DNA of 64,000 nucleotides from an uncultured bacterium (GCA_963704645.1 OY969926.1:1088001-1152000); one strand, 5' to 3'; counted from the first letter of the stretch, positions 26,866-56,095 are shown. The notes: generated by a model from the sequence alone, not told the origin. Translations and numbers: made by a program.

Positions 26866-26922
26866 AACACAGGAGGATAAATCCTTCCCCTACAAAAAAT
26901 TCACTTGAATTACATCTCAACT

Positions 26923-27007
26923 TTGACACAAAAATAAAAAATGTTTAATATTATAGTACATTTTCCCATTGGGACGACCTCTTTTTAGAGGGTTATTTTT
27001 TTACTAG
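26923..27007 (+). ncRNA. Putative toxin-associated small RNA copy 1, with promoter
   Basis: TTGACA(26923)-17-TAATAT; hairpins TCCC-ATT-GGGA and CCTCT-TTTT-AGAGG; abuts toxin stop at 26993. Confidence 0.6.
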
Positions 27008-27403
27008 AAATTCTATAAATTTATTTTGAATATTCTGAAATTCGTTTACACCCACTTTAGAAGTTGAATATTGTAATCTTTTAGCATCGAAAGATCTGAT
27101 CTGGCTAAAAACTAAGTAGCTGCAAGACCCTCTAATTTCTAATTTATAAAACCAGCTTCCAACTTTTTCTTTAGAAGTTAAAGGAATGCCAATAAAACTT
27201 TCTTTATTAAGCTTTTTTAGTATAAACACAGGTCTTAAAAATAGCTTTTCCGAATAGTTTGAATTATTTTTTCCATTTATTTCTCGACCAATATTTTGAC
27301 CAAACACACAATACCAAATTTCTCTTTCTTCAAACAAAGGCCGAAGACTATTTTGCTGTATTTTAAATTTTAATTTAATCCAAGTTAGAAATTCTTCCCA
27401 CAT
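26993..27403 (-). CDS. PemK/MazF-like toxin (orphan)
   Basis: FEEREIWYCVFGQNIGREINGK...RPVFILKK...IPLTS...SQIRSFDAKRL. Confidence 0.88.
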   Translation of the reverse strand: MWEEFLTWIKLKFKIQQNSLRPLFEEREIWYCVFGQNIGREINGKNNSNYSEKLFLRPVFILKKLNKESFIGIPLTSKEKVGSWFYKLEIRGSCSYLVFSQIRSFDAKRLQYSTSKVGVNEFQNIQNKFIEFLVKK

Positions 27404-27530
27404 TAAATAATTCCTACAAAAGTTTTAAAGTTAGTCTAAAAAAGTTTGGTCAAAAGTTGGACTAATTGAGTTTAAAAAGATAAACGTGCAATTATTAAAA
27501 ATTAGTTTCCACAAGTCTTATGCTGAAACT

Positions 27531-27613
27531 TTGACACAAAAATAAAAACCCATTAACATTAGTAAATAAATTGGGATTACCCATGTACCTCTGGAAACAG
27601 AGGTTAATTTATT
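27531..27613 (+). ncRNA. Putative toxin-associated small RNA copy 2, with promoter
   Basis: TTGACA(27531)-17-TAACAT; TGGG-ATTA-CCCA; ACCTCTG-GAAA-CAGAGGT; flanks AATAAATT/AATTTATT are complementary. Confidence 0.65.
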
Positions 27614-28004
27614 ATTTAAATATAACTTCAATGACATATTTTTTTATTTGATTTAATTCTGCTGTGGAAAGCTGAGCAATTTTCTTTCTAAACCGTTTAG
27701 AATCTAACGCTCTTATTTGCGAAACTAAAGCTGAATAGTATTGACCGCCGTAGCTAATTTTAAAATAGTATTTATTTTCTTTTAGCTTTGAGCTGATAGG
27801 AATAGCTAAGCAAAACCTACTATTAAATTTTTTTACTACGACAATTGGCCTTACAAAATTAAGACCTTTTCCATTTTCCTCATCTCCCAAGTTTTTACCC
27901 AAATTAACCCACCAAATTTCACCTTCATTATAAAAATAAGGTCTGAAGTTGTTTTCTTCAATTTTAAATTTTAATTTAATCCAAGTTAGAAATTCTTCCC
28001 ACAT
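27612..28004 (-). CDS. PemK/MazF-like toxin (orphan)
   Basis: GEIWWVNLGKNLGDEENGKG...RPIVVVKKFN...IPISS...SQIRALDSKR. Confidence 0.9.
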   Translation of the reverse strand: MWEEFLTWIKLKFKIEENNFRPYFYNEGEIWWVNLGKNLGDEENGKGLNFVRPIVVVKKFNSRFCLAIPISSKLKENKYYFKISYGGQYYSALVSQIRALDSKRFRKKIAQLSTAELNQIKKYVIEVIFK

Positions 28005-28095
28005 TAAATAATTCCTACAAAAGTTTTAAAGTTAGTCTAAAAAAGTTTGGTTCATAGTTGGACGAATTTGAGGGCAAAAGACTTACCTTACAACT

Positions 28096-28178
28096 TTGAC
28101 ACAAAAATAAAAACTATTTATTGTTCATAGAACAAATTTGCAACAGCCACGTACCCCTTATTTGGGGTTAATTTATTG
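28096..28178 (+). ncRNA. Putative small RNA copy 3 (no adjacent toxin 3' end), with promoter
   Basis: TTGACA(28096)-17-TATTGT; TTGC-AACA-GCCA (one mismatch); ACCCC-TTATTT-GGGGT; TAATTT. Confidence 0.55.
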
Positions 28179-28193
28179 GCTTAAAATTTAACT

Positions 28194-28277
28194 TTGACGC
28201 ACTAGTAAAAATTATTCAGTATTGAACAAATTGGGATTACCCACAGCACCTCTAATAATAGAGGTATAATTTTGTTC
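28194..28277 (+). ncRNA. Putative small RNA copy 4 (orphan), with promoter
   Basis: TTGACG(28194)-17-CAGTAT; TGGG-ATTA-CCCA; ACCTCTA-ATAA-TAGAGGT; flanks GAACAAA/TTTGTTC are complementary. Confidence 0.55.
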
Positions 28278-28303
28278 TAATTTAGAACTAGCTAATCTCC
28301 CTT

Positions 28304-30295
28304 TTACTTATCATCCCAAATGTAAACACCATTAAATTTAGTCATTTCTATGGCTGACATATTTTTAATTCTTTCTAATAAAAGTTTACTTACACTATCA
28401 TCAGGTAGATTTGCAAAGATTTTGGAGGCTTCTGTGTATTTACCTTCTGAATAAAGTTTGTATCCCAATGAAAACTGTTGGACCAAATCTGTGTTGGACT
28501 GAGTTGGTTGCAAGAGTTCGTATATTGCAACACCTGCTTGTTTACCTTTAACTTGGACCAAATCTATCTGACGGTACAACCCGCCTTCAAAGCTTCCAAA
28601 AAAATGAGAATCTTGGGATAAATCTAAACCAGCAATTTCCAAAACTGCTTTAGAAACCAAAATTTCTATTCCGTACTTTTTAGTTAAACCTTCAAGCCTG
28701 GAAGCCAGGTTTACATTGTCACCCAAAACTGTGTATTCAAAACGCTTCTTTCCACCAATATTTCCTACAATTACATTGCCTGAATTTAGTCCAATGCCAA
28801 TTTTTAAGTCTTTAAATTCAGGGTGTTGTGCATTAAATTGCTGTAAAGATGTTTGCATTAAAAGAGTAGTTTGCATTGCTAACAGTGCATGTTTTGGGTT
28901 ATCAAGTGGAGCATTCCACAAAGCCATTATGCAATCACCTATGTATTTATCGATTGTTCCTTGCTGATTCAAAATTACTTCCCCTGCACTATCCAGATAC
29001 AAATTTGTGAGATGAACTAACTCTTCTGGAGACATAGTTTCTGCTAGAGATGTAAAACCACGAATATCGCTAAACAAAATAGTAACTGTTTTTTTGCTGC
29101 CACCAAGCTTAAGCTGGTCGGGATTTTTTAATACTTCTGCTAACAATGCCGGGCTTAGATATTGGCTAAAGGTTTCTGAAATGAATTTATTTTGTTTCCC
29201 TTTAGTGGCACTTTCAAAAGCCAAAAAACCCCCGAAACCTCCTATTAAACCGAAGCTGGAAGATAAAAATAGCCAAATATACCCCAATCCAAACAATACA
29301 GCTCCAAAAATGTTTATTACAATTAGGCATAAAAACTGGTTTATCAAAACGTTTTGCATTTTAGGCCATTTAAACCATAAACCAATTAGAACAGAATAGA
29401 TTAATGTGAAAATTAAATAATTCAACCATGGGTTAATTTGCTGCCTGTTTATATTTTCCAGTAAAGAGTTTACAACGTTGGCATGAATTTCCACCCCCGC
29501 AATTTGTTGGCCAAAAACACTTGTAAAATTATCATTCAAATTATTTTTCAAATCTTTGCTGGTTGAACCAATTAAAACAATTTTTCCTTCCAAATTAGCT
29601 TTATCTATGGAATTATTATACAAGTCGGAAAAGCTGTAGGTTTCAAATTGATTTTTTGCATATTCAAAATTATAATTTTGTTGAAAGCTTTGCTGCCTAA
29701 CTTTCACTTGAGCTTGGCTGCAATTGGAAGGGGTTTTATCTAAAACTGAGTTTTTAAATAAGGCAAAAGCAAAACTTGAATAACATTCACCCGAAACCTG
29801 CTTTGTTAAAGTTGCAGTTCTAATTTTACCATCTGTATCAGGGCTAAAATCAATTAAAGCGCTGGTTATATTTGATTTATTTTGAGGAACTAAAGGGCTT
29901 TCTAAAATTTTGTTATTATCGCTTTTAGCACCAAAAACAATTGGCATTTCAGAGTTATTTAAATACGCACTAAGCTGATCATCGCCCTGCCTGCTTTCTA
30001 AAAACAAAATGTCCAATCCTACAGCTCTGGGCTTAGCTTCTTCTAAGTTAGAAAGTGCTTTTGCAAAAATATCTCTGTTCCAAGGCCAAGCTCCAATTTG
30101 CTGTAAACTTTTATCGTCTATACCTATAATTACCACGTCTTTTCTAGCAGATATTACACCCTGCAACTGGTCAGTAATTGTTTGATTAGCTGAAGCCAAA
30201 GGAGGGGTTAAAGCCAATAACCAACCCAAAATTATTCCTAAGGGAATGTATAAATAATAGATAAAATTAGAATTAAGTTTAATAGCTTTGAACAT
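28304..30295 (-). CDS. CHASE2-domain class III adenylate/guanylate cyclase
   Basis: GAWPWNR, GVEIHAN (CHASE2); TMs; LFSDIRGFT, DKYIGDCIMA, GDNVNLASRLEG. Confidence 0.93.
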   Translation of the reverse strand: MFKAIKLNSNFIYYLYIPLGIILGWLLALTPPLASANQTITDQLQGVISARKDVVIIGIDDKSLQQIGAWPWNRDIFAKALSNLEEAKPRAVGLDILFLESRQGDDQLSAYLNNSEMPIVFGAKSDNNKILESPLVPQNKSNITSALIDFSPDTDGKIRTATLTKQVSGECYSSFAFALFKNSVLDKTPSNCSQAQVKVRQQSFQQNYNFEYAKNQFETYSFSDLYNNSIDKANLEGKIVLIGSTSKDLKNNLNDNFTSVFGQQIAGVEIHANVVNSLLENINRQQINPWLNYLIFTLIYSVLIGLWFKWPKMQNVLINQFLCLIVINIFGAVLFGLGYIWLFLSSSFGLIGGFGGFLAFESATKGKQNKFISETFSQYLSPALLAEVLKNPDQLKLGGSKKTVTILFSDIRGFTSLAETMSPEELVHLTNLYLDSAGEVILNQQGTIDKYIGDCIMALWNAPLDNPKHALLAMQTTLLMQTSLQQFNAQHPEFKDLKIGIGLNSGNVIVGNIGGKKRFEYTVLGDNVNLASRLEGLTKKYGIEILVSKAVLEIAGLDLSQDSHFFGSFEGGLYRQIDLVQVKGKQAGVAIYELLQPTQSNTDLVQQFSLGYKLYSEGKYTEASKIFANLPDDSVSKLLLERIKNMSAIEMTKFNGVYIWDDK

Positions 30296-30367
30296 TAATT
30301 GTGAATTTAAATTTGTTTTTGAAATGAATTAGCGGTTTAACAGCAAAATATTTTAGTCTTATTTACT

Positions 30368-31981
30368 TTAACACACTGTTCCATACTGAACTGAGATTGT
30401 AATAGTAACAGGAACACTAGCCAGTCCATTGTTATCCACGGCGGTTAGTTCTATTACATAGTTTGTATTGCTTCCACAGGTTCCTGGTGTAGTTAATTTC
30501 TTGGTTACGGAATTTCCCTTAGCAAATTCAACTCCATTAATTTTCCAAATCAAATTGTTGGTGCCTAAGTTGCCATCCTCAGGGTCTGTTCCTAGTCCGT
30601 TAAAAGTAACTGTAGCATAAGGGTCGCCTACTGCGTTAGTGGAGAATGGATAGCTGGCAGCAAAAATACTTCCGTTGCTTGGAGTACTAATAGTAGCCAC
30701 GGGGGATTGGTTTATGGGTTTAAGTGGAGCAGGAGTATTGGGTGTAATGTTTACAATTGTTTTAGGAACAGTTGGGTTTGCTTTCACCAAAATGGGCTGT
30801 TCTATTTTAAAAGAAATACTTCCAGCTACTTTATAACTTCCATCCCTAGCCTCAACTGCCAAATTATAGTCTCCAGCTTCTAGGTTTTCTAATAAAACAG
30901 TTTCTCCAACTGGTTTGTCTAGATTGTTCAATTTCCAGTTTATATTGGCAGATGGAAAAGGGCCTTTTCTGCATGGATTATAAGTAATTGCTTTTGCAGA
31001 AACGGAAGATTTGTTAGGTAGAGTTTTACCAGTACTACCACTTTGTATTTCTAGTGTAGCTCCTACGGCGCCGTCTCTATTTTTTTCTTCCAACAAAGTT
31101 AAGCAGTTTTCTTTTAAAGTGGGTAATTTGTTTTCACTATCAATTGTAGCTAAATCTGTAGATTCTTTGAATTTTAATATATCCGAAAGACTGAGTCTTT
31201 TTTTCCATAAATTATCTATAAAGCTATTTCTTGAATACCACCTACCCTGCTCAGACACTGGCCTTAAATTACCTTTTCTTACAATTCCACCAGCTTCTTT
31301 GGAACCAACTTCCACAAAATTACTTGGGGACAGTTCTGTTGTACTGTTGTCTAGTTTGGAAGTTACATCAACCTTACTCTCAATCAAATAAATTCCTGAA
31401 AGCTCTTCTGGTTTTTCAGAAAGTTCTACTCCAAAAATTGTTCCACGAACTGTAGCCAAAGTGGTTGACGTTTCTACTATATATTTGCCACTGCTAACTT
31501 TTTCTACTCTGTGCCAAGTTGAACCAATTAGCTGATTAAATTTACTTCCAGAATCTGTAATTTCTACTTTTATCTCTGTTTCTTTATCTAAGGAAATTAA
31601 TGAATTATCCGGCATTAAAACATGTGCCAAAGAATTTAGTCCAGTTTTTATAGTACTTCCAGAAGGAACTTGAACTTCTTCCGCATCAATATTACTATAA
31701 GTTTGATCATCTCTAACTTTAAAACTTGCTTCACCTTTTTCTTTAATTACGGTTATTAGCTGGCTTGTTTTTTCTATAGAGTTAGTGTTTTTTGGCCAGA
31801 AAGCCCAAATTAAAAACACAATGCTAAGCAATAATAATATAGCAATAATAATTTGATTAAATCTTTTTTGCCACCATTTTTGAGATTTGGATTTTAGTTC
31901 TGCAGAATTTGGATCAGACAAATTTATATCTGAATTTTCATAGGGGTTTGAGTTTTCAGAAGATTGAGTCTCAGCTTTCAT
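30368..31981 (-). CDS. FecR-domain membrane protein with C-terminal Ig/PKD-like domains
   Basis: TM, IKTG..S.A, ATVRGTIF; C-terminal NQSPVATI...DPEDG...LTAVDNNG. Confidence 0.75.
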   Translation of the reverse strand: MKAETQSSENSNPYENSDINLSDPNSAELKSKSQKWWQKRFNQIIIAILLLLSIVFLIWAFWPKNTNSIEKTSQLITVIKEKGEASFKVRDDQTYSNIDAEEVQVPSGSTIKTGLNSLAHVLMPDNSLISLDKETEIKVEITDSGSKFNQLIGSTWHRVEKVSSGKYIVETSTTLATVRGTIFGVELSEKPEELSGIYLIESKVDVTSKLDNSTTELSPSNFVEVGSKEAGGIVRKGNLRPVSEQGRWYSRNSFIDNLWKKRLSLSDILKFKESTDLATIDSENKLPTLKENCLTLLEEKNRDGAVGATLEIQSGSTGKTLPNKSSVSAKAITYNPCRKGPFPSANINWKLNNLDKPVGETVLLENLEAGDYNLAVEARDGSYKVAGSISFKIEQPILVKANPTVPKTIVNITPNTPAPLKPINQSPVATISTPSNGSIFAASYPFSTNAVGDPYATVTFNGLGTDPEDGNLGTNNLIWKINGVEFAKGNSVTKKLTTPGTCGSNTNYVIELTAVDNNGLASVPVTITISVQYGTVC

Positions 31982-32087
31982 AGTATGGATGTAATTTATG
32001 TGTTAGCAATTATGTCTATTTTGATGGTATTACCCAAGCTATTTGTCAATGTTTGACATTCACCCCAACTAAAGAGAACTTGATTGC

Positions 32088-32864
32088 ATGAACAAATACG
32101 TTTTAATTACAGGCGCCAGTACAGGAATTGGATATGAACTATCCAGAGTTGCCGCATCGAACAAATATAATTTAATTTTAGTTGCAAGAAACTTAAGCAA
32201 ATTGGAACAATTGAAGTTGGAAATAGAAAAAAAATTTGGCGTAAACGTTGAAATAATTTCGTCTGACCTATCTTTCAAACAATCTCCTAAAGAAATATAT
32301 AATTTGGTGAAAAGAAATAACTGGCCGGTTGAAATTTTAATTAACAATGCTGGGTTTGGAAGCAATGGCAGGTTTGACACACTAGATTTCCAAAACGAAA
32401 TGGACGAGTTGCAAGTAAATGTAGCCAGCTTAATGGAAATGTGTCATTTATTTATTCCAGACTTAATTAAAATGGGGAATGGTAAAATTATGAATGTTGG
32501 GTCTATAGCTGGCTTTGCACCTGGACCTTACATGGCTACTTACTATTCTACCAAGGCCTTTGTTAAAAGTTTTTCCATGGCATTAAATGAAGAATTAAAA
32601 GACGTTGGAGTTACTGTTTCAGTGCTTTGTCCTGGCGCTACCAAATCTGAATTTTTCAATAGAGCAAAATTTGCACAACATATGTCTTCTTCAAAAATGA
32701 TGATGAGTGCAGAAAAAGTTGCCCAAATTGGCTGGAAAGATATGATGAAAGGTAAAGCTATTACAATTTCAGGAATATCTAACCTAATAACAATTTCTTT
32801 GATTAAACATTTGCCAGAAACATTTTTGGCTAAAATAATGAAGACTTTTAATCAGTATAAGTAA
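32088..32864 (+). CDS. Short-chain dehydrogenase/reductase
   Basis: TGASTGIG, NNAG, YYSTK. Confidence 0.92.
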   Translation: MNKYVLITGASTGIGYELSRVAASNKYNLILVARNLSKLEQLKLEIEKKFGVNVEIISSDLSFKQSPKEIYNLVKRNNWPVEILINNAGFGSNGRFDTLDFQNEMDELQVNVASLMEMCHLFIPDLIKMGNGKIMNVGSIAGFAPGPYMATYYSTKAFVKSFSMALNEELKDVGVTVSVLCPGATKSEFFNRAKFAQHMSSSKMMMSAEKVAQIGWKDMMKGKAITISGISNLITISLIKHLPETFLAKIMKTFNQYK

Positions 32865-32868
32865 AATA

Positions 32869-34167
32869 CTATCCCTTAGTAATTAGAACTGAAATTCCAC
32901 CGACTACCAACACTACGGTAATAATAACTAAAACTACTCTCCAACCCTGATTTTCCACTTGGGGTATTTGGGAAGAGCTTTCATTTAGTTTAGGAGCAAA
33001 AATAACATCTATAGAATCTACTGCTTCTGGGGAAAGTTTGGTAAAATTCTTATTAACAAGCTGAACCTTAATAGTTTTTCTACCTTCAATTGTATCGCTT
33101 AATCCAATTTCGTTTAAGGTGAAGTCAGTTTTTGACCACAGAGTTTTCAATGGTTTGTTGTCTACATAAATTTGTAAATAGCCTTTCGTATCTTCGTTAT
33201 CATCTTTGGTAGCTTCAGTTAAAACAGTAAAATTATCTACCTGAACCAAAAACTTTTGATCTCCATCTACTGTTAAATTGGTTCTGTCTTTGCGAGGTTC
33301 AGTAATAGTTATTTTTGGCAAACCAACATCCAAACTTCCACTATAATTACTTCTTACTTGTAGAGAATTTCTATAATTTAAAACATTGCCGTTGGTTTGG
33401 GTTAGAACAAAAATTAAATTAGTGCTAAGTCCGTCTGGAATTCTACTAGATTCTAAATCACGAGTGTTGAATCTTACATAAATTTTCCCCTCAATGCTTT
33501 GAGAAACACTGAAAATACCTAGCCTGTTTTGATCTAAAATTTCGTTAACATAAACATTTAGCTTACCTCTGTTGGGCAATCTACTATCAGAATTTTCTAA
33601 CTCAAAATTGGTTAGCTGCAATGTAACATCTTTATCTGCCCCTCTTCCAATAACTGAATTTGGTGAGGGTTCTAGAACCTGTATTGATGGTAAATTACTT
33701 GAATTTTTAAACTTGAAAGTGAATAAAACTTTGGTAGGCTGAGCAGGAAAACGATTAGTTGAATCTATGTAAACAAATAGAATTTTATTACTACCTTCAG
33801 CCAATTTAGACCTTAAACTTAAAATAGGTAAGGGACTGGATCCAAATTCTGTAATTAGATTTGTGTCTTGGGAATCATCATTTAAATATATTTTTAAATA
33901 ACCCCCTCCCCTAGCTGGAGCATCTTTATATTTCAAATTCAAATCTGTTCCAGACCAGCCATATTTAATATCGTCGTCTAGGTTTAGCTCATTGTCGTAA
34001 GTATAACTGTTGTTTGCCTCTTTCCTTGTGTTTTCAGATTTCCCATCTTTAGTTACTTTACTAATAGCTAGATTAATAGGATTGGTAGCAGATTGGGCAA
34101 CAGCTGCCAGCGGCGTTCCAATTAAAATTGAACATAAAAAAACTATAAGCAAACCCTTGTAAGGCAT
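32869..34167 (-). CDS. Hypothetical secreted protein with C-terminal TM anchor and repeated Ig-like units
   Basis: Signal peptide; repeated P.I.I.EP and G.L.IY segments; C-terminal TM. Confidence 0.6.
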   Translation of the reverse strand: MPYKGLLIVFLCSILIGTPLAAVAQSATNPINLAISKVTKDGKSENTRKEANNSYTYDNELNLDDDIKYGWSGTDLNLKYKDAPARGGGYLKIYLNDDSQDTNLITEFGSSPLPILSLRSKLAEGSNKILFVYIDSTNRFPAQPTKVLFTFKFKNSSNLPSIQVLEPSPNSVIGRGADKDVTLQLTNFELENSDSRLPNRGKLNVYVNEILDQNRLGIFSVSQSIEGKIYVRFNTRDLESSRIPDGLSTNLIFVLTQTNGNVLNYRNSLQVRSNYSGSLDVGLPKITITEPRKDRTNLTVDGDQKFLVQVDNFTVLTEATKDDNEDTKGYLQIYVDNKPLKTLWSKTDFTLNEIGLSDTIEGRKTIKVQLVNKNFTKLSPEAVDSIDVIFAPKLNESSSQIPQVENQGWRVVLVIITVVLVVGGISVLITKG

Positions 34168-34194
34168 ATTAAATAAACACTGATCTGGCCTAGA

Positions 34195-48656: not shown

Positions 48657-48676
48657 AACAACCTAAATTTAAATAT

Positions 48677-49957
48677 ATGAGTTCAACTGTTGAAAGTTTT
48701 GCGACATCAAAAAATCAGATTAGCAATTACAAAAATGTTCCACCAAATGAAGAAAAGGTTGAACGGGTGGAAAAATTTATTGCAAGATTACCTTTAAACG
48801 GAGAAGGGAATATTAATTTATATTTACTTGCTGTTGCAGTTTTGGATTATTCAATAAATGCTTCAGTTGAAGAAATTTACGAAGCATTGTTAAATGTTGG
48901 TGGAAATATTGTTTTTACAAAAGTTAAAGTTGAAAAAGGTATTTCATTAATAAAAGGGCAAGAGGAAAGAGTTAAATTGCAAAAAATTGAAAATCTTAGG
49001 AATTTTCTGAGCCAAATAATTTATCTAAATGGAAAAGGTGCAAAATTGGAATTAGTTAAAAGAAATACAGTTGAGGATATTAAATCAAAAGAACAGACTG
49101 AAGGGGAAATACTATTTAATGATTTTGTAGATTTTGCAATTAAAAACTCTGAGGAAATTATTGATACTTGTATAAGTAATGATGAAGAAGAGTTAGTTGT
49201 AAGCCGAGATTTAATTTCAGATTATTTTTATGATAATTTCTATTCTTCTAGTCCAGATCAAAACTTAGAAGTTTCAAAAGAAAAACAACTAGAATATAGA
49301 CGTTTGGCCGATAAAGCCCAAGAAATTAATTCTCACATAGAGTATGATGAACGAGGCTGGTATAAAATTAAAGGTGGTAAATTGTATGAATACAAAGAAG
49401 ATGTTATTGGCAGAGTTTATTTTAACGTAGACCCCATGTTTGGGCCCAAGTTATTAAACCAATTGCAAGTTTTATTAAGCCAAAGAGTTTCTACTTTTCA
49501 AGCTAAAATTCCAGAAAGCTATGAAGATAGAAAAGATAACTGCGTATTATATTTTACCAAACAAGATCAAGCAGTAGTACTTGAAATAGTTAACCAGATT
49601 GCAACAAGTAATCAATTTATATTTAGAAATGAACTAGGGAAAGGTCAGAAAAAAATTTTAAAAGGAATTGGTTTTGCCCAAGATGCAACTGAAGGACCAA
49701 GTAAAGATTTTAGGTATTATGAAACGAACAATGATAATATTACTTCTTTTGGTGGAAAACTATCTTTCATTTTTGGCGTAGTATTTAAAGCAGTAATAGC
49801 AAGGCAGCTGGATTGGCAAAAAGATAAGGAAACTATAAAAGAACTGTATAACAAGATTTGTAAAATTCATAATGTTGACCCTAAAGACCCAGCTTTTCAT
49901 ATACAAGACAACAATTTTGAAACAATAAGAAATTTTGCAGAACAAAACACAGCTTAA
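48677..49957 (+). CDS. Protein with HopA1-family-like C-terminal domain
   Basis: GRVYFNV, FQAKI, RKDNCVLYF, GIGFAQD, SFG motifs; start taken at MSST. Confidence 0.6.
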   Translation: MSSTVESFATSKNQISNYKNVPPNEEKVERVEKFIARLPLNGEGNINLYLLAVAVLDYSINASVEEIYEALLNVGGNIVFTKVKVEKGISLIKGQEERVKLQKIENLRNFLSQIIYLNGKGAKLELVKRNTVEDIKSKEQTEGEILFNDFVDFAIKNSEEIIDTCISNDEEELVVSRDLISDYFYDNFYSSSPDQNLEVSKEKQLEYRRLADKAQEINSHIEYDERGWYKIKGGKLYEYKEDVIGRVYFNVDPMFGPKLLNQLQVLLSQRVSTFQAKIPESYEDRKDNCVLYFTKQDQAVVLEIVNQIATSNQFIFRNELGKGQKKILKGIGFAQDATEGPSKDFRYYETNNDNITSFGGKLSFIFGVVFKAVIARQLDWQKDKETIKELYNKICKIHNVDPKDPAFHIQDNNFETIRNFAEQNTA

Positions 49958-49973
49958 TTCCCCCAACAACAAA

Positions 49974-49997
49974 GGCGATGATTAACATCGCCCCTAC
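49974..49997 (-). repeat. GTAG-type REP-like palindrome between convergent genes
   Basis: Minus strand gtaggggcgatgttaatcatcgcc. Confidence 0.55.
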
Positions 49998-50016
49998 CCT
50001 AATTTTTAGAAATAAA

Positions 50017-50571
50017 TTAGCTGTTAGACTTTAAGTATTCTAAAATTGTGTCTGCATCGGAAATTTCGAATGGATCTGTTGGACAGTCATCAGAAAAACC
50101 TGGCTCTATGAACATTTTTGTAATTGTTCCATCTTCAACAACCATGGAGTATCTCCAAGATCTGTCACCAAAACCTAGATTGTTCTTTTTAACCAACATT
50201 CCCATTCCTCTTGTAAAATCTGCATTTCCATCTGGAAGTAAGAAAATGTTATTCACACCTTGTGCCTTTCCCCATTGGAACATTACGAAAGCATCGTTTA
50301 CACTTAAACAAATTACTTCATCAACACCTAAGTCTTTGAAAGCTTGGTAATTGTTTTCATAACCTGGTAAATGTGTGCTGGAACATGTCGGTGTGAAGGC
50401 ACCTGGTAAAGAGAATAAAACAATTTTCTTTCCTGCAAAAACATCGTTAGTAGATAAATCTTTCCAACTAAATTTGTTTGGACCTTCGGCATTTTCATCG
50501 CGTACACGGGTTTTAAAAGTTACTTGTGGCACTTTCTGGCCTTCAATATTTTTGTGATCTGAACTGGACAT
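50017..50571 (-). CDS. Peroxiredoxin (Prx5/PGdx type)
   Basis: LPGAFTPTCS..HLPGY, SVNDAFVM, DGNADFT, RSWRYSM. Confidence 0.93.
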   Translation of the reverse strand: MSSSDHKNIEGQKVPQVTFKTRVRDENAEGPNKFSWKDLSTNDVFAGKKIVLFSLPGAFTPTCSSTHLPGYENNYQAFKDLGVDEVICLSVNDAFVMFQWGKAQGVNNIFLLPDGNADFTRGMGMLVKKNNLGFGDRSWRYSMVVEDGTITKMFIEPGFSDDCPTDPFEISDADTILEYLKSNS

Positions 50572-50738
50572 ATATTTTAAATTTAATTTTTAATGGCAAT
50601 TTCTTACCTAATTAATTAACATTTTAGAGGCACTTTTTGTCAAAGAATTTACCCTATCTATACAGAGCAGTCCAAACTTTGAATATTAAAAAATATAGAC
50701 GTTTAGGCTTTTTACACTAATATTATTCTTGTACATTT

Positions 50739-51134
50739 ATGGAGAATTTTATAAAAAACTTTACAAACTGGTTTAGTTTAAAACCTGAGTTAGAATTCTT
50801 AAAAAGTTCTAAAAATTTTAATGAAAGAGAAATTTGGTGGACACATTTAGGCAGCAACTTAGGTTTTGAAATTGATGGTAAAACCTTACAATACACCAGG
50901 CCAGCACTGATACTTAAAAAAATTTCTACCCAAACAGCATTAATACTTCCGCTTACCTCAAAAGACAAGAATGGAAGTTGGTACATTCCAATAATTGTAG
51001 ATGAAAAAGAAGGAAGAGTAATTCTTTCTCAAAGCCGAACTATAGATAGTAAAAGATTAAAATCCAGACTTGTGACTATTAATGAAAGAGAATTTAAAAA
51101 TATAAAAGAAAAATTTATTCAATTTATTGGGTAA
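50739..51134 (+). CDS. PemK/MazF-like toxin (orphan)
   Basis: FNEREIWWTHLGSNLGFEIDGK...RPALILKK...LPLTS...SQSRTIDSKRL. Confidence 0.9.
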   Translation: MENFIKNFTNWFSLKPELEFLKSSKNFNEREIWWTHLGSNLGFEIDGKTLQYTRPALILKKISTQTALILPLTSKDKNGSWYIPIIVDEKEGRVILSQSRTIDSKRLKSRLVTINEREFKNIKEKFIQFIG

Positions 51135-51215
51135 AAATTGTCCTCCCATTTCTGGGAGGTTAGCGACTGACGTCGAAATTACTATGATAATAATACTTAC
51201 CATGACTTTTGTCAA
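51131..51215 (-). ncRNA. Putative toxin-associated small RNA copy 6, with promoter
   Basis: Minus strand TTGACA(51215)-17-TATTAT; CGAC-GTCA-GTCG; CCTCCCA-GAAA-TGGGAGG; ends at toxin stop. Confidence 0.65.
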
Positions 51216-51449
51216 TTATGTATCCTTACTTTCCAATTTTATTTTCCCAATAAAATAACACAAAGGTAAACATTATCATGTTTCAGAATTACAGTAACAC
51301 CCTGATAAAGAAATATCAAGAAGAATTTTTACAACAAGTTAGTAGGTTTAAATCTTTTTGATTAATTTTCAACTGAAATAATTGCTAGATAATAACTAAA
51401 ATGTACAACCAGAGCAAACAAAGCCTTCAAATTATTTTGCTGAAAATAA

Positions 51450-52538
51450 CTACCCCGCCAAATTCTTAAGGTGGAACTTATTATAAGCCCAAGAGCCAAG
51501 CAATATTAGAAATACTGACGAGCCCATCAAAACTAATAGCTCTGGAATAATATCGCCCAAACCTTTGTTGAATTGCAAAACTTTTCTAAAAGCTTCTGTT
51601 GCATAAGCACTTGGAACTAGGCTGGTTAAACTTGGACCGCCAAAAATTTTAATCTCTGGAAAAGCCACGAAAGCTCCAGACAAAAAACCCAGAATTACCG
51701 AGGCCAGGGTTCCTATATTAGCTGCCAAATTGTCGTTTTTAAAGCTAGAAACTATAACCATGCCAAGACCAACTGTGAACAAATTAGTAGGAATTGAAAC
51801 CAATAAAGCCAAGCTTAATGCCGACCAACTAGCTGAATAACCAAAAACTAGAACAGCCCCAAAAAGCAAAATGGTTTGAAACAAAGCTATAACAGATTGA
51901 CTTAATAAATGCCCAACAATTATCTGCCAACTTTGAACTTTGGCTGTAAAATACCTAAATGTATAATTTCGCCTAATTTCGTTGCTCATTTGGAAAATTA
52001 TTTGAGGTAGTAAATTTAAAATTCCGTAAACAATTAAACCAGGAACAAGATAAGTAAAGGCCGTGGTTTTTTCAGAATTACTTACAGTAGAAACAACTTC
52101 TAATTTAGATTCATTTTGATAGAAAAACTGATTAGAATAACTGGAAATAATGCCAATAACAGCATTACTTTTAACACTGTAGGTATTGGCGTAAACTTTA
52201 ACTTTAGGCTGTGTAGAAAATTCTAGGAAGGCGTCCAACTTACCATCTTGCACCTTACTTTTACCTTCTTCCAAATTAGCAATTTCAGAGATTTCAAACT
52301 GGGAAACATTTTTAGGAGTTTTAATATTTTGCAATTCTTTAATAAAACTAGTCTGATACAAAGCCGAAGAATTTGATGAATAAGCTATTTTAAAAACCTG
52401 CTCACTGCTATTGGTGTTGAAAACCAAGGCAAATATTCCAATAAATACCACTGGTAAAATGAACACAATGGACCAGCTTTTAATGTCACGTAAAATATAT
52501 AGCAGGTTTTTTTTAGCAATTGATAATGTTTTATTCAT
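51450..52538 (-). CDS. ABC-2 type transporter permease
   Basis: N-terminal TM, extracellular domain, six C-terminal TMs. Confidence 0.85.
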   Translation of the reverse strand: MNKTLSIAKKNLLYILRDIKSWSIVFILPVVFIGIFALVFNTNSSEQVFKIAYSSNSSALYQTSFIKELQNIKTPKNVSQFEISEIANLEEGKSKVQDGKLDAFLEFSTQPKVKVYANTYSVKSNAVIGIISSYSNQFFYQNESKLEVVSTVSNSEKTTAFTYLVPGLIVYGILNLLPQIIFQMSNEIRRNYTFRYFTAKVQSWQIIVGHLLSQSVIALFQTILLFGAVLVFGYSASWSALSLALLVSIPTNLFTVGLGMVIVSSFKNDNLAANIGTLASVILGFLSGAFVAFPEIKIFGGPSLTSLVPSAYATEAFRKVLQFNKGLGDIIPELLVLMGSSVFLILLGSWAYNKFHLKNLAG

Positions 52539-52559
52539 AAGTATTTTATGTAAAAAGTT

Positions 52560-53498
52560 TTATTCACGAATTTCTTTACCGGTAAGAATTAAGAAAATAT
52601 CTTCCAAGGAAGGTTCTCTCATTTCCAAGTTATTAGTTTGAACATTTAAATTCGCTAGGGCAGGAAGTAATTCTTGCAACACAAAATTCGAATTTTTAGC
52701 CAGTAAACTAAAGCCTTTCTCTGAAAAAATAGCGGTTGGGAAAAGTAATTCTAAACCTAATATTTGTTCAGAATTTAAGCTATCTACTTTTACTTCAAGC
52801 AAAGTTCCGTTGCCATATTTTTCTTTTAATTCATCAACTGTGCCTTCAGCAATAATTAAACCATCATCTATAATAACTACATAATCACATAGTTTTTCTG
52901 CCTCTTCCAAATAGTGATCGGTTAAAATTACAGCCTTGTTTTGGTTTTTTAAGTTTTTAATGAAGTCCCATAAAAATATTCTAGATTGAGGGTCAATTCC
53001 CGGTGAAGGCTCGTCTAAAAATACCATACTTGGATTATGAATAATAGAAATGGCTAAGTTTAACCTTCTTTTATATCCCCCAGAAAGATTTATTGCCAAA
53101 GTATTCAATTCCGATTGTAGGTTTAGGCCAGCAATTAAAATATCTGTATTTTCTTTAATTTGTTGTTTGCTCATACCCTGTAAAGACCCTGTAAATAAAA
53201 GGTTTTCGTGCAAAGTTAATTTATCCCAAATTACAATTTCTTGAGGCATAACACCTATTTTGCTTCTAAAATTACTTGGAACAAATTTAAAGGTTTCTCC
53301 TTCAATTTCAATCTCTCCAGAAGTTGGCGTAATTTGCCCTGAAAGCATTTTAATTATTGTAGATTTACCAGATCCGTTTGGACCAAGCAATCCCAGAATT
53401 TGTCCTTGTCTAATTTGTAAACTAACATTTTTCACTGCTAGCTTAGAATTTTTGCCATCATTAAAACTTCTACTTAAATTGCGGGCATTTATTTGCAT
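52560..53498 (-). CDS. ABC transporter ATP-binding protein
   Basis: GPNGSGKS, LSGG, LDEP, H-loop, LEDIFL..TG. Confidence 0.93.
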   Translation of the reverse strand: MQINARNLSRSFNDGKNSKLAVKNVSLQIRQGQILGLLGPNGSGKSTIIKMLSGQITPTSGEIEIEGETFKFVPSNFRSKIGVMPQEIVIWDKLTLHENLLFTGSLQGMSKQQIKENTDILIAGLNLQSELNTLAINLSGGYKRRLNLAISIIHNPSMVFLDEPSPGIDPQSRIFLWDFIKNLKNQNKAVILTDHYLEEAEKLCDYVVIIDDGLIIAEGTVDELKEKYGNGTLLEVKVDSLNSEQILGLELLFPTAIFSEKGFSLLAKNSNFVLQELLPALANLNVQTNNLEMREPSLEDIFLILTGKEIRE

Positions 53499-53548
53499 AA
53501 AGCCACTAACAATAGTTTTGAATTATTTGTAAACCCAACTTTAAAAGA

Positions 53549-54112
53549 TTATTCTGGTTTTGGTGCAGGTGCTTTGATGGTTTCATTAACCGGCTTATAA
53601 TTTTGTAAACCTGCAGGAACTGGAGCATCAATAGTTGAACCAGGAGGGTTAACTTTTATTGAAATATTATTATTTAGATTCACTTGCTCATCTTTACTAA
53701 GTTCAACATTAAGATTGCCTTGTATTGGAAGCGGCACAACTTGTTGAGTACAGGTTTGAGCTTCAGAACTAGGAAGTTTGGAATCTAAATTTAAAGTTAA
53801 AATAATTTTATCACCTAGCTTAGCTAAATTGTAAGATTTCAAAGATACACAGCCATTTTGGCCATAAACTTTACCGTTATAACTGATTGATTTACTTTGG
53901 GTTGAATATTTAAAAAATATATCTTCCTTCTTAACATCTATCTGTACGTTTTCAGTTTTGCTAGCTGCTGTTTTGGGTTGGGTAAAAGTATAGTATGCAA
54001 ACAAACCACATACCAACAATATTACACCAAGAATTACTAAAATAATTGTTGTTCTATTACGCCCTGTAATTAAACTAGCCTGATTGTTAAAATTTGGGGT
54101 TAAAATATTCAT
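53549..54112 (-). CDS. Hypothetical membrane-anchored protein
   Basis: Single TM; GC...CTQ..VP motif pair. Confidence 0.55.
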   Translation of the reverse strand: MNILTPNFNNQASLITGRNRTTIILVILGVILLVCGLFAYYTFTQPKTAASKTENVQIDVKKEDIFFKYSTQSKSISYNGKVYGQNGCVSLKSYNLAKLGDKIILTLNLDSKLPSSEAQTCTQQVVPLPIQGNLNVELSKDEQVNLNNNISIKVNPPGSTIDAPVPAGLQNYKPVNETIKAPAPKPE

Positions 54113-54295
54113 ATTAAAGTTTTCTGCAATTGTTATTAGAGATTAATTTATGTTAGTTTAATATAGTTTCTTTAAATAAGCAAACAATTCAGGAGCAAGG
54201 ATAATATTTCGTAATTCTCTAAATGTGTGTTCCATAAATGCTTATCATAAAGATGAAAAAATAACTACTAAAAAATATTCGCTGGAAGCTGTTAT

Positions 54296-55564
54296 TTATA
54301 ATATATTTTCACGAACCTCATTTACCATTTGCATTTCTTCATTTGTAGGAATAATCCAAACTTGTATTGTAGAATTTTCGGAAGAAATTTTGACTGAACT
54401 TTTACATTCATCAGAATTTGCATTAACTTGAAGGTCTAAATTAAGCCCAAGAAAAGCAAATCTTTCACAAATTTTTTGACGAATTAAATGCGAACCTTCC
54501 CCAACTGCTCCACTAAATATTATAGCTTCAGCACCATCTAAAACCGATATATAAGCTCCTAACTTCTCTATAATTCTTTCCACAAAAAAGTCTAAAGCAA
54601 ATTTAGCCTGCGGTTTAATATTATAGTCTTGAATGATAGTAACTAAATTGCTAGTATAACCCGATATTCCTAAAATACCAGATTTTTTATTTAAAATTGT
54701 AGCTGTTTCCTGCCAGCTTAGGTTTTCAGCTTGATTATAAAAACTTAAAGCTTCCAAATTTACTTCCCCAGAACGTGTTCCCATTGGCAAACCTTCGTTC
54801 GGGCTAAAACCCATGCTAGTTTGATAACTTTCACCATCTTTTATAGCGCAAAGGCTAGAACCACTTCCAAGATGTAAAGTAACAATTTTGCCCTTAGACA
54901 ATCCATTATTTTTACTTAATGTTTTCTCGCTCGAGACATCGCTAACACCCTTGGCGGATACTAGCTGATCTACCAAGTTACCACTAAACTTGTTCTTGTA
55001 ATATGTCTGCGATAGATATTTGTGGGAAAGTCCGTGAAACCCGAAGCGTTTTATTCCGCACTCTTTATAAGCTTTAATGGGAAGAGCGTAAATCTGATTA
55101 ATTTCTGGTAAACTAGTGTGAAAAGCAGTATCAAAAACTGCTATTTGTTTAAGTTTGGTGAAGTTTTTTTGTAATAGTTTAATTTCAGCTATAGCTGGCG
55201 GATTATGTAACGGAGCAATTTGATTTAACTTTTCCAATTCAACAATTACATTTTCATCAATTTGGGTTGAATTAGTAAATTTATTTCCCCCGTGAACAAT
55301 TCTATGAATAACCGTTAATTCTAAAAAATTATCTACAATTTTTAATTCTTGAATTAAATTTAGAACTAAAATAGAACCTTCTAAATATTGCGATGAAGAA
55401 AGAGGGCGAGTTTCAACTTTATTATTAAAAGTAAACACAAACTGATACTCATTGGCCATGTAATTAGTTAATTTGCCAAACAGAATTGGAGAGTTGGAAT
55501 TAGTAGGATAAAGGCTAAATTTTAAAGAAGAAGATCCTTTGTTTAAAGCTAAATAGTTGGGCAT
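54296..55564 (-). CDS. ackA: Acetate kinase
   Basis: N.GSSSLK, HRIVHGG, APLHNP, FDTAFH, GFHGLSH, HLGSGSS, MGTRSG, TNEE. Confidence 0.95.
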   Translation of the reverse strand: MPNYLALNKGSSSLKFSLYPTNSNSPILFGKLTNYMANEYQFVFTFNNKVETRPLSSSQYLEGSILVLNLIQELKIVDNFLELTVIHRIVHGGNKFTNSTQIDENVIVELEKLNQIAPLHNPPAIAEIKLLQKNFTKLKQIAVFDTAFHTSLPEINQIYALPIKAYKECGIKRFGFHGLSHKYLSQTYYKNKFSGNLVDQLVSAKGVSDVSSEKTLSKNNGLSKGKIVTLHLGSGSSLCAIKDGESYQTSMGFSPNEGLPMGTRSGEVNLEALSFYNQAENLSWQETATILNKKSGILGISGYTSNLVTIIQDYNIKPQAKFALDFFVERIIEKLGAYISVLDGAEAIIFSGAVGEGSHLIRQKICERFAFLGLNLDLQVNANSDECKSSVKISSENSTIQVWIIPTNEEMQMVNEVRENIL

Positions 55565-55624
55565 AGGTTGATTTTAATGAAGTGTATAAGTCTGAGCTTG
55601 AATTTGTAACTAAATTAAATAGTG

Positions 55625-55709
55625 TTGACATAAATTATAACAAATGTTCTAATTAGCTTACAAATTGCCGTTAGGTACGACCTCTCAGAAATGAGAGGGT
55701 TAATTTTTG
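55625..55709 (+). ncRNA. Putative toxin-associated small RNA copy 5, with promoter
   Basis: TTGACA(55625)-17-(TG.)TCTAAT; TGCC-GTTA-GGTA; CCTCTCA-GAAA-TGAGAGG; abuts toxin stop at 55700. Confidence 0.65.
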
Positions 55710-56095
55710 CCCAAAATAATCTGAGACATTTTTCTTTTAAGAATCAATAATTCGTTATCACTAATTTTTCCAAGTTTGTAGCTTAATCTTTGTACATCTA
55801 TAGCTTTCATCTGAGAAAGTAAAACTGATATATTTTTCTGACGCATTTTTAAATTGAAATAATATTTATTATCTTTAATTTTAGAACTTGTTGGCAAACC
55901 ATAGAATAGTTTATGGTTGAACTTTCGTATTATCACAACTGGACGTAAAAACTGGTCACCTTTTCCGTTTTCCTCATGACCTATATTTTCTCCTAAATGA
56001 CACCACCATATCTCCGCTTCTCTAAAAACCGGGTATTTTTCATTTTCATGTAATTTTGGTTTTAACTTAAACCAGTCCAAAAAGTTTTTAATCAT
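55700..56095 (-). CDS. PemK/MazF-like toxin (orphan)
   Basis: FREAEIWWCHLGENIGHEENGKG..FLRPVVIIRKFN...LPTSS...SQMKAID..RL. Confidence 0.9.
   Translation of the reverse strand: MIKNFLDWFKLKPKLHENEKYPVFREAEIWWCHLGENIGHEENGKGDQFLRPVVIIRKFNHKLFYGLPTSSKIKDNKYYFNLKMRQKNISVLLSQMKAIDVQRLSYKLGKISDNELLILKRKMSQIILGKN

Follow-up and report, generated by a model that had tools for sequence, protein, structure and literature searches.

Convergent structured RNA genes at the 3' ends of MazF/PemK-like toxin genes: a candidate RNA antitoxin, with a related toxin on the Campylobacter plasmid pVir

Introduction

[quoted passage not shown] A different association is represented in Rfam by the pemK RNA motif family, whose name reflects a link to pemK genes and which is located upstream of these genes in Firmicutes. 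The CjrA/CjpT pair of Campylobacter jejuni 81-176, encoded by the plasmid pVir, was reportedly described by Shen et al. in 2016 (Mol Microbiol 101:909). Two publications present CjrA as an antisense RNA that serves as the antitoxin in a type I system of pVir, the toxin being a protein (PMC10470494, PMC7826846). The AbiF/RCd22 system, as outlined in a preprint, likewise joins a protein toxin with a structured RNA (bioRxiv 10.1101/2025.04.15.648962).

Here we analyze a 64-kb stretch of DNA from an uncultured bacterium (hereafter, the window) that contains four MazF/PemK-like toxin genes, each convergent with a short gene for a predicted structured RNA. As in par, txpA/RatA and bsrG/SR4, the predicted RNA gene sits opposite the toxin gene under a promoter of its own and extends over the 3' end of that gene, where its own terminator hairpin closes it, and this layout is conserved. 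However, the toxins of those systems are small hydrophobic peptides, whereas the window encodes soluble MazF-fold proteins of 130–136 aa, predicted to be RNases, and the RNA, with its conserved single-stranded leader, measures about 50 nt, compared with 100–220 nt for the Bacillus type I RNAs. The type II MazEF/PemIK systems share the toxin family and fold, but the window loci lack a MazE/PemI-type gene. ToxIN, CptIN, TenpIN and AbiF/RCd22 resemble the present loci in combining an RNase toxin of related fold with a structured RNA, and some of the loci also have tandem RNA units; nevertheless, their RNAs are upstream, same-strand tandem repeats processed by the toxin. No such upstream repeat antitoxin was found here: single units with separate promoters face the toxin genes, and the toxin resembles canonical MazF most closely.

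Results

The toxin genes lack a protein antitoxin

As the initial annotation had proposed, four ORFs in the window are PemK/MazF-like. All four exceed the PF02452 cut-off of 23.1 bits, scoring 26.4–57.5 bits, and the fold is that of MazF:

26993–27403, minus strand: MazF/PemK-like toxin gene 1, 136 aa (PF02452, E = 8.2e-6)
27612–28004, minus strand: MazF/PemK-like toxin gene 2, 130 aa (PF02452, E = 1.8e-15)
50739–51134, plus strand: MazF/PemK-like toxin gene 3, 131 aa (PF02452, E = 8.3e-12)
55700–56095, minus strand: MazF/PemK-like toxin gene 4, 131 aa (PF02452, E = 2.4e-12)

The top Foldseek matches of the AlphaFold model of toxin 2 (pLDDT 82.6) were MazF proteins of S. aureus, M. tuberculosis, B. 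subtilis and E. coli, whose query-normalized TM-scores were about 0.56–0.66, and no ToxN-type toxin was among the structural matches listed. The model includes an extra N-terminal helix (residues 2–17). Invariant Arg-Pro and Thr/Ser-Ser-Lys positions, which are catalytic in MazF, align with those of B. subtilis MazF. Given the fold and these aligned positions, the toxin looks active, and endoribonuclease activity and toxicity are predicted.

The adjacent, co-transcribed antitoxin gene (MazE/AbrB, RHH and so on) that characterizes type II MazEF systems was not found next to the window toxins: an ORF check revealed no antitoxin-like neighbor at any of the four, and the small ORFs beside them produced no antitoxin-type Pfam match. 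The lack of an upstream antitoxin ORF, first noticed in the window, extends to 76 related toxin loci, which share no conserved upstream ORF and in which the neighbors of the toxin are varied housekeeping genes. The single exception among the 76 (L140) contains, in addition to the RNA unit, an ORF that on visual inspection looks like an AbrB-type antitoxin.

Six RNA units in the window

The repeated convergent unit that had been pointed out in this DNA is real and is present in six copies, all built on the same plan of a sigma-70 promoter, a leader of about 6 nt, a 4-bp hairpin (hairpin 1) and a terminator hairpin. In the list below, z is that of the fold and R1 is a covariance model with a six-sequence seed that includes two window units and one further copy from this genome, so that seed members match by construction:

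26923–26951, plus strand: promoter of RNA unit 1 (TTGACA, 17 nt, TAATAT)
26958–27003, plus strand: RNA unit 1, leader ACAUUU, hairpin 1 UCCC/GGGA, terminator hairpin 26978–26991 (z −2.09)
27531–27559, plus strand: promoter of RNA unit 2 (TTGACA, 17 nt, TAACAT)
27566–27616, plus strand: RNA unit 2, leader AUAAAU, hairpin 1 UGGG/CCCA (R1 67.8 bits, in seed; z −3.24)
28096–28180, plus strand: orphan RNA unit 3, promoter and RNA (R1 32.5 bits; RNA part 28131–28180, z −1.32)
28194–28277, plus strand: orphan RNA unit 4, promoter TTGACG with −10 CAGTAT (R1 46.6 bits; z −2.85)
51130–51215, minus strand: RNA unit 5, promoter 51215–51187 (TTGACA, 17 nt, TATTAT), RNA from about 51180 (z −4.00)
55625–55710, plus strand: RNA unit 6, promoter 55625–55653 (TTGACA, 17 nt, TCTAAT), RNA from about 55660 (R1 63.3 bits, in seed; z −3.26)

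Each of the four units linked to a toxin has the stop codon of that toxin within its U-rich tail or directly after it. The tail of unit 1 spans the stop codon of toxin 1 (26993–26995), and that of unit 5, which has hairpin 1 CGAC/GUCG and a terminator hairpin at 51159–51142, spans the stop codon of toxin 3 (51132–51134). In unit 2, the terminator hairpin (27587–27604, GAAA loop) is followed by a tail extending to the toxin 2 stop codon (27612–27614), and in unit 6, with leader ACAAAU and hairpin 1 UGCC/GGUA including a G-U pair, the toxin 4 stop codon (55700–55702) comes directly after the terminator hairpin (55681–55698). The hairpin 1 variants first read from the DNA (TCCC/GGGA, TGGG/CCCA, TGCC/GGTA and CGAC/GTCG) and the GAAA loops are as originally described. 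Of the orphan units, unit 3 has a decayed hairpin 1, is located upstream of toxin 2 and is directed away from it, and unit 4, which has the same hairpin 1 as unit 2, faces the 3' end of a gene for a 663-aa protein (28304–30295, minus strand).

The window matches to R1 at E < 1e-3, six in all, correspond to these units (26955–27003, 27563–27616, 28129–28180, 28223–28277 and 55657–55710 on the plus strand and 51130–51184 on the minus strand); one further match, at 49012–49059, is marginal (E 0.094). A consensus scanner flagged TTGACA-17-TAnnnT promoters at 26923, 27531 and 28096 (plus) and at 51215 (minus), the weaker promoters at 28194 and 55625 not being flagged, and found a terminator at each of the six units, with four terminators in 26850–28350 against 0.4 expected. 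The two-hairpin fold is present in five of the six units (z −2.1 to −4.0), the exception being the orphan at 28131–28180.

Linkage of the RNA unit to the toxin

Genome-wide, there are nine units, seven of which abut MazF-like genes (five intact, one split and one fragment), and the remaining two stand in the array beside toxin 2; the four weakest genome-wide R1 matches are ordinary terminators without hairpin 1. The toxin has at least 530 relatives in species-representative genomes. At the loci of relatives, 35 of 39 R1 matches and all 16 R2 matches are on the opposite strand just past the toxin. In a separate set of 41 matches in relatives, eight are ordinary terminators without hairpin 1. 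Co-occurrence with the toxin family in other genomes, which had been suggested as a check, is borne out: a strict promoter-plus-two-hairpin detector found a unit after 49 of 74 toxin genes, the counts for the three control regions being 0, 0 and 1 of 74, although genomes of one family are kin and these linkage counts are not independent events. In an RNA-first search, the first 18 nt of the RNA gave 120 metagenome matches in 119 loci, among which 85 matches face a MazF-like ORF, 11 are on contigs too short to tell, nine belong to full units without a MazF-like ORF and 15 are bare 18-mers without a unit. Broken toxin copies (one split, one fragment) retain their RNA units, and further units lack any toxin, which is the pattern expected of antitoxins. 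Orphan or tandem units without an adjoining complementary target occur at 28096 and 28194 in the window and at loci L020, L014, L033 and L115.

Structure, strand and promoter of the RNA across the family

In an alignment of 63 sequences, which had been fitted to the model, 97.9% of the stem cells pair, compared with 68% in shuffled sequences and 47–60% in slid registers, and all 11 stem pairs show compensatory changes, so that the covariation originally noted in hairpin 1 holds for both stems. G-U cells outnumber A-C cells (15 vs 3), and the hairpin-2 loops are GNRA in 44 of the 63 sequences and of the reverse-complement class in none; together, the loops and the G-U excess place the RNA on the promoter strand. 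UUCG tetraloops also occur among the units. Pairing between the 5' and 3' flanks, from which a three-way junction had been proposed, is present in the 27566 unit, but the junction itself is unsupported because 50% of the flank cells pair in the 63 members, which is the slid-register background.

The promoter register is fixed. Among 63 distinct units from the RNA-first search, the −10 element scores at least 4/6 in 62, in every one of which it ends exactly 6 nt ahead of the leading A; the −35 element scores at least 5/6 in 48 units; and most have the toxin stop 39–57 nt from +1. The single-stranded leader (ACAAAU, AUAAAU, AUAUUU) and the start 7 nt after the −10 element are conserved across distant lineages. 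In many type C units, the tail is A-rich rather than U-rich (A 42%, T 31%), which leaves the 3' end of their RNA undefined.

No Rfam 15 family matched the RNA: the search was negative at gathering thresholds over the whole window, at E up to 10 over 26850–28320, and in 20 related loci when hits with E up to 0.1 were admitted, and the pemK motif differs in that it matched neither the window units nor these 20 loci.

A related module on pVir

The plasmid pVir of C. jejuni 81-176 encodes a member of this MazF subfamily (40% identical across 102 residues, the N-terminal extension among them), which is the only TA gene named among the 49 annotated features, with no antitoxin annotated. Convergent with it are a promoter and a structured RNA, predicted to be about 86 nt long with three hairpins, that ends in a GC hairpin 6 nt from the toxin stop codon; an R1 search did not detect this RNA. 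CjpT is likely to be this MazF-like gene. The present module resembles CjrA/CjpT in that pVir carries a homologous toxin with a convergent structured RNA, and differs in that the predicted pVir RNA is longer than the window units (about 45–55 nt). The convergent design also recurs in subfamily members on other Campylobacterota plasmids and prophages. The earlier view that no system with such a layout had been described is weakened by the pVir homolog with its convergent RNA and by the published CjrA on this plasmid. The literature searched did not describe an RNA structure shared across the family, its distribution among uncultured bacteria with small genomes, or a corresponding Rfam family.

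Discussion

The lack of a protein antitoxin, combined with a real, strand-specific, covarying and tightly linked RNA that has no Rfam match, makes an RNA antitoxin the best reading of these loci, and we consider it probable that the RNA neutralizes the MazF-like toxin by some mechanism. The module would comprise the gene for a MazF-fold endoribonuclease with an extra N-terminal helix and a convergent RNA of about 45–55 nt, constitutively promoted on the opposite strand, in which a 6-nt leader (ACAAAU or a close variant) precedes a short hairpin and a GC-rich terminator hairpin, and which would end on top of the toxin stop codon. If both strands are transcribed, the toxin mRNA, having no terminator of its own before the RNA gene, would read through it and acquire a 3' end perfectly complementary to the abundant small RNA. 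Duplex formation and head-on transcription would then reduce the toxin mRNA level, and once synthesis of the unstable RNA stops, for instance upon loss of the module, the toxin would be produced. We tentatively favor this 3'-overlapping antisense (type I-like) mechanism over direct binding of the toxin, while giving it slightly less than an even chance. The 3' complementarity follows automatically from the overlap.

A cis-antisense RNA requires no particular sequence, so that the conservation of the leader sequence and of the exact start favors a conserved partner that recognizes the RNA; GNRA and UUCG tetraloops are ill suited to kissing-loop contacts; and the orphan or tandem units without a complementary target and the undefined 3' ends of type C units also count against antisense action. 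The antitoxin might instead be type III-like, with the folded RNA binding the MazF dimer directly: the 5' leader would fill the substrate groove as a product-like mimic, uncleavable because no preceding nucleotide supplies the attacking 2'-OH, the two hairpins would serve as a stable handle, and the antisense overlap would be a by-product of tight linkage. The leader, with its constant sequence, 6-nt length and exact start across lineages, contrasts as this would predict with stems that drift with compensation, and stable GNRA/UUCG tetraloops are typical of scaffold RNAs. Tandem units would increase the amount of RNA, an effect that repeats have in type III systems already described, and the RNA shows no extra pairing to the translation start of its own toxin (cognate −11.55 vs non-cognate −12.16 kcal/mol, p 0.92). 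The MazF fold binds single-stranded RNA in solved complexes (4mdx and 5hjz are among the top matches), and the modeled N-terminal helix (residues 2–17) could be an RNA-binding addition. Nevertheless, we regard direct binding as rather unlikely: three genes of unrelated kinds also have an intact unit next to them, the leader shows some variation, the closest folds are those of type II MazF proteins with no ToxN-type toxin among the matches listed, and CjrA, the one published candidate for a relative, is classed as a type I antisense RNA (PMC7826846, PMC10470494). Were it true, this would be a new type III-like class, in which inhibition of a canonical MazF by an RNA antitoxin would be shown for the first time, spanning hundreds of small-genome uncultured bacteria as well as Campylobacterota plasmids and prophages.

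The same co-inheritance and conserved sequence features would be expected if the RNA were a partner of the nuclease other than an antidote, either a processed substrate or cofactor or a trans-acting regulator under toxin control. This appears improbable, given that a genome could hardly maintain several copies of a free-standing MazF-fold RNase whose catalytic positions are conserved if nothing inhibited it, and that RNA units persist beside broken toxins and alone. Far less credible still is the absence of any dedicated function, with the unit being an ordinary terminator that happens to have a promoter next to it, or what is left of the end of a mobile element. Hairpin 2 and its tail do resemble the ordinary terminators of this genome, to which the weakest R1 matches belong, but the full unit is confined to these loci, and the covariation of hairpin 1, the fixed promoter register and the control counts bring this possibility close to refuted; in particular, a generic terminator motif, named at the outset as a potential refutation, is not what the detector counts reveal. 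The RNA antitoxin therefore remains our preferred reading.

The module is distributed in small-genome uncultured bacteria, with the subfamily also found on Campylobacterota plasmids and prophages; annotation pipelines label genes of this subfamily type II toxins. The unrelated genes that intact units abut in relatives are of the Schlafen/AlbA_2, DUF1828-DUF1829 and DUF1877-like types, which suggests that the RNA does not depend on the type of toxin and counts in favor of the antisense mechanism. The C-terminus of the Schlafen ORF is KQKN, as in two of ten aligned MazF-like proteins (P0003 and P0007), which fits a cassette swap that retained the RNA. Where a unit adjoins a non-MazF gene, however, the two may not function as a pair, the unit being left over after the toxin gene was replaced; at locus L041, an in-frame Gly-Lys-Asn-stop remnant can be read by eye after the new ORF.

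MazF-like genes and convergent RNA units in the genome

The genome that holds the window is a single contig of 1.27 Mb with approximately 33% G+C. The four ORFs initially annotated as PemK/MazF toxins all produced significant Pfam matches to this family (E values from 8.2e-6 to 1.8e-15); the NCBIfam matches, also to MazF, were weak, and a PADLOC search with these ORFs yielded no match. The AlphaFold model of the protein encoded at 27612-28004 (pLDDT 82.6) is a MazF barrel with an additional N-terminal helix (residues 2-17), and the nearest PDB structures are MazF proteins from Staphylococcus aureus, Mycobacterium tuberculosis, Bacillus subtilis and Escherichia coli. In the profile of the toxin family, an invariant Arg-Pro and a Thr/Ser-Ser-Lys motif align with the matching positions of B. 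subtilis MazF, which we take to be catalytic.

The predicted convergent unit, consisting of a promoter, a short leader and two hairpins, was recovered on the opposite strand directly beyond the stop codon of all four genes, and two additional copies lie in tandem upstream of the second toxin:

26993-27403 (-), MazF-like toxin 1; RNA predicted to start at ~26958
27612-28004 (-), MazF-like toxin 2; RNA predicted to start at ~27566
28096-28180 (+), orphan RNA unit 3; RNA predicted to start at ~28131
28194-28277 (+), orphan RNA unit 4; RNA predicted to start at ~28226
50739-51134 (+), MazF-like toxin 3; RNA predicted to start at ~51180 (minus strand)
55700-56095 (-), MazF-like toxin 4; RNA predicted to start at ~55660

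The starts were deduced from promoter geometry, and the expected length of the RNAs, as read from the sequence, is 45-55 nt. A consensus scanner flagged promoters in four of the six units and terminators in all six (in the first region, four against 0.4 expected). Five units adopt the two-hairpin fold (z from -2.1 to -4.0), hairpin 1 being decayed in the orphan unit at 28131-28180.

Toxins 1 and 2 are only ~40% identical overall, yet their 5' leaders and first 15 codons are nearly the same (27404-27470 and 28005-28070), and the RNA promoters at 26921-26946, 27529-27554 and 28094-28119 have ~20 identical bases in common, a mosaic pointing to exchange between modules by recombination or gene conversion. 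Orphan unit 4 (region 28194-28306) faces the 3' end of a gene for a 663-aa protein (28304-30295, minus strand), and the intervening gap of ~39 nt contains another small hairpin. Two inverted copies of a ~28-nt stretch that starts with TTGACC and includes a short GGGG/CCCC hairpin lie ~0.9 kb apart (~25947-25974, minus strand, and 26838-26865, plus strand).

By tblastn, the toxin was detected at three more sites of this genome, as an intact gene, as a gene broken into two pieces and as a C-terminal fragment, and a convergent unit accompanies each of them. In the fifth intact toxin (L001:601-1035, G000:C1:387200-387634), the usual stop codon is gone and a 144-aa ORF traverses the entire opposite-strand RNA unit. 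By eye, an apparent transposase fragment can be recognized next to the split toxin (L002:133-489), and a pair of small ORFs resembling a PIN-type toxin and its antitoxin next to the toxin fragment (L003:1-613). TGA is the stop codon of just 43 of the 880 long reading frames in this genome; nevertheless, recoding was rejected, and no alternative code is needed, because reading frames under table 11 still account for 83% of the genome.

Absence of a conserved protein antitoxin

In agreement with the initial annotation, no antitoxin-like ORF was found beside the four window genes. Among the 76 loci of the toxin family with enough upstream sequence, no recurring upstream ORF family was detected, the neighbors being varied housekeeping genes with two exceptions: a 60-aa ORF that by eye resembles AbrB/MazE, directly upstream of a saccharibacterial toxin that also has a convergent RNA (L140:914-1563), and an ORF of ~100 aa common to loci L123 and L143. 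As the upstream ORFs are not conserved, the module behaves as a self-contained two-part insert. A small ORF in the toxin sense across the RNA was also considered and rejected: it is conserved only where the DNA is nearly identical and has no antitoxin-type Pfam match.

Structure, strand and specificity of the RNA

The covariance model R1 was built from six copies of the unit, two of them from the window, using the RNA part only, with the promoter left out. The covariation originally noticed by eye in hairpin 1 holds on a larger scale: in 63 sequences aligned to R1, 97.9% of the cells contain standard pairs, compared to 68% after shuffling, and both-side changes are seen at all 11 pairs; the alignment is fitted to the model, which favors pairing, but the margin is large, and registers slid by 1-3 columns are only 47-60% paired. 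In contrast, the suggested helix between the 5' and 3' flanks, with its three-way junction, is not supported, since the 50% of cells paired in a gapless, single-register test equals the background. The excess of G-U over A-C cells (15 vs 3), the GNRA loops of hairpin 2 (44 of 63, against 0 of 63 for the reverse-complement class) and the UUCG loops that close many first hairpins in the wider family argue that the functional strand is the promoter strand. The leader is mostly ACAAAU, with variants AUAAAU, AUAUUU and ACUUUU.

Within the window, R1 retrieved the six units and one marginal extra match. Genome-wide, at E values up to 1, it gave 12 matches, namely 8 units and 4 terminators, whereas the unit that accompanies the toxin at ~387 kb, the ninth in this genome, scores below this range. 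The four weakest matches are ordinary terminators without hairpin 1 and without a promoter and, therefore, hairpin 2 with its tail represents a terminator type common in this genome. The promoter, leader and hairpin 1 constitute the specific part. Rfam searches of the window and of 20 related loci returned only noise and tRNAs, and no Rfam family matches the signature.

Distribution among related genomes

The comparison covered the genome of the window and 40 relatives, 24 from the same family and 16 from outside, 41 genomes in total. Fifteen of the 24 same-family genomes yielded the toxin, compared to none of the 16 others; R1 matches at E values up to 1e-3 were likewise found in 15 of the 24 but also in one of the 16, where the sole match is a plain terminator. 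A tally of the two tables puts toxin and R1 match together in thirteen genomes. The 41 matches outside the window's own genome were sorted by context; because these genomes are kin, the counts are not independent.

Table. Context of the 41 R1 matches in related genomes
Adjoining a MazF-like gene (one truncated): 20
Tandem second copy: 1
Adjoining other ORFs: 5
Without a convergent ORF of at least 50 aa, or with a short unrelated one: 6
Contig end: 1
Plain terminators: 8

Three intact units adjoin genes unrelated to MazF:

L035:371-1554, unit with a Schlafen/AlbA_2 protein of 380 aa
L036:1501-2362, unit with a DUF1828-DUF1829 protein, DUF6978 gene upstream
L041:1501-2053, unit with a DUF1877-like protein, ClpP-like gene upstream

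The Schlafen ORF ends with the residues KQKN, as do 2 of 10 aligned MazF-like proteins (P0003 and P0007), and the new ORF at L041 is followed by what, by eye, is an in-frame vestige of the C-terminus of a MazF protein. These loci look like cassette swaps that retained the RNA, which would imply a protein-independent mechanism unless the units are relics. In several relatives, two or three units, each with its own promoter, are arranged in tandem (L020:1236-1491, L014:1880-2207, L033:1907-2076 and L115).

Linkage in the wider family

Relatives of the toxin are encoded in at least 530 stretches of species-representative genomes. Most of the matches listed carry public labels of Saccharibacteria, Parcubacteria or other Patescibacteria, and some carry those of Rickettsiales, Alphaproteobacteria or Bdellovibrionales. 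In the best 80 of these loci, 35 of the 39 R1 matches are located immediately beyond the toxin on the opposite strand, as are all 16 matches of a second, narrow model, R2, which covers type C units only and found 16 of the 80 loci; the unit also occurs as a 'CCGAGA' variant. A strict detector that is blind to sequence identity identified the unit in 49 of 74 testable loci, compared to 0, 0 and 1 of 74 in the controls (sense strand of the same region and either strand of the upstream region). It demands a -35 element, a -10 element, a first hairpin located 4-10 nt downstream of the start and, as the second one, a GC hairpin. Most of the loci missed by the detector also carry a unit variant, as judged by eye, and few of the intact toxin genes among the loci examined lack a recognizable unit.

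The reverse search, a scan of metagenome contigs with the 18 nt at the 5' end of the most frequent RNA variant, yielded at least 119 loci.

Table. Context of the 120 RNA-first matches listed
Facing a MazF-like ORF (hmmsearch): 85
Contig too short to tell: 11
Full unit without a MazF-like ORF: 9
Bare 18-mer in unrelated sequence: 15

Among the 63 distinct MazF-linked units in these listed matches, 62 have a -10 hexamer (at least 4 of 6 positions) ending exactly 6 nt before the leading A, and 48 have a -35 element with at least 5 of 6 positions; as the search pattern did not include the promoter, this fixed register is an independent check. In most of the 63, the toxin stop codon and the predicted RNA start are 39-57 nt apart. 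Phage carriage of the RNA was considered and rejected: of the 13 loci from two scans of viral contigs, 12 contain the bare motif but no unit, and the remaining one is too short for a verdict. In the patescibacterial loci L124 (four genes), L101, L099, L075 and L094, tRNA genes are located within ~1 kb of the module.

A probable RNA antitoxin and its mode of action

The convergent layout described in the initial annotation is confirmed, and its range has become much wider. The comparative evidence supports well the proposal that the RNA is the antitoxin of the MazF-like toxin: in all other cases known to us, members of this toxin family come with an inhibitor; broken toxin copies retain their units and other units stand without a toxin; intact toxins devoid of a unit are scarce; and the RNA has a near-consensus promoter. 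Of two candidate mechanisms, we favor antisense, type I-like action on the toxin transcript because the layout is invariably convergent and overlapping, because no terminator for the toxin transcript precedes the RNA gene, and because intact units adjoin the three unrelated genes. As read from the sequence, each G-U pair of the RNA weakens the hairpin 1 complement on the sense strand, where the complement of hairpin 2 is not followed by a U-run.

The competing explanation is direct, type III-like binding of the RNA to the toxin, and several features speak for it: the single-stranded leader is conserved and its start fixed, the hairpins are capped by tetraloops, units occur in tandem arrays, and there is no extra complementarity to the toxin translation start. 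Pairing in trans with the latter was rejected, cognate combinations being no better than non-cognate ones (p 0.92, 43 loci). As a conjecture, cleavage would be impossible for an RNA whose 5' end coincides exactly with the recognition sequence, and such an RNA might serve as a product mimic seated in the groove. Antisense action, the reading we prefer, and direct binding predict opposite outcomes of rescue, and the module is a clean test case of how a 50-nt RNA could restrain a catalytic RNase toxin.

Public genomes contain hundreds of MazF genes annotated as 'type II toxin' for which an antitoxin is nowhere visible, and the RNA unit is likely to be their missing partner, with a searchable signature absent from Rfam. 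We are aware of almost no information on RNA regulators in small-genome uncultured bacteria.

Relatives in Campylobacterota

When plasmids and phages were searched with toxin 4 (tblastn), the subfamily was found in Campylobacterota only: in Nitratiruptor plasmids (42% identity), small Helicobacter suis plasmids, Campylobacter coli plasmids, pVir of Campylobacter jejuni 81-176 and seven Campylobacter prophages. At every locus read, there is a convergent extended -10 promoter, and the last GC hairpin of a structured RNA adjoins the stop codon; the folds have z from -3.0 to -4.7. The Nitratiruptor RNA resembles the window units in its two-hairpin design and AUAAAU leader, whereas longer RNAs are predicted in Campylobacter and Helicobacter. 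R1 produced no match at the predicted Campylobacterota RNAs, where the likeness rests on reading and folding.

Of the 49 features annotated on pVir, only the MazF-like gene, at 30630-31034 of the record, is named as a toxin-antitoxin gene. Two papers (PMC10470494, PMC7826846) describe for pVir of strain 81-176 a type I system in which the antitoxin is the antisense small RNA CjrA, both citing Shen et al. 2016. We consider it likely that the published toxin, CjpT, is the pVir MazF-like gene. If so, the layout has been described once already, as a type I system, and the present finding would broaden it into a large family whose RNA has a defined structure. The complete novelty claimed in the initial annotation probably does not hold; no family-level description of this RNA was found in the literature searched. 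A poorly known Campylobacter plasmid-stability system would thereby be tied to a large family across small-genome uncultured bacteria. In the CJIE4-3 prophage (L292, record 31945-32379), the genes for the terminase large subunit and the portal protein flank the MazF-like gene together with its convergent RNA.
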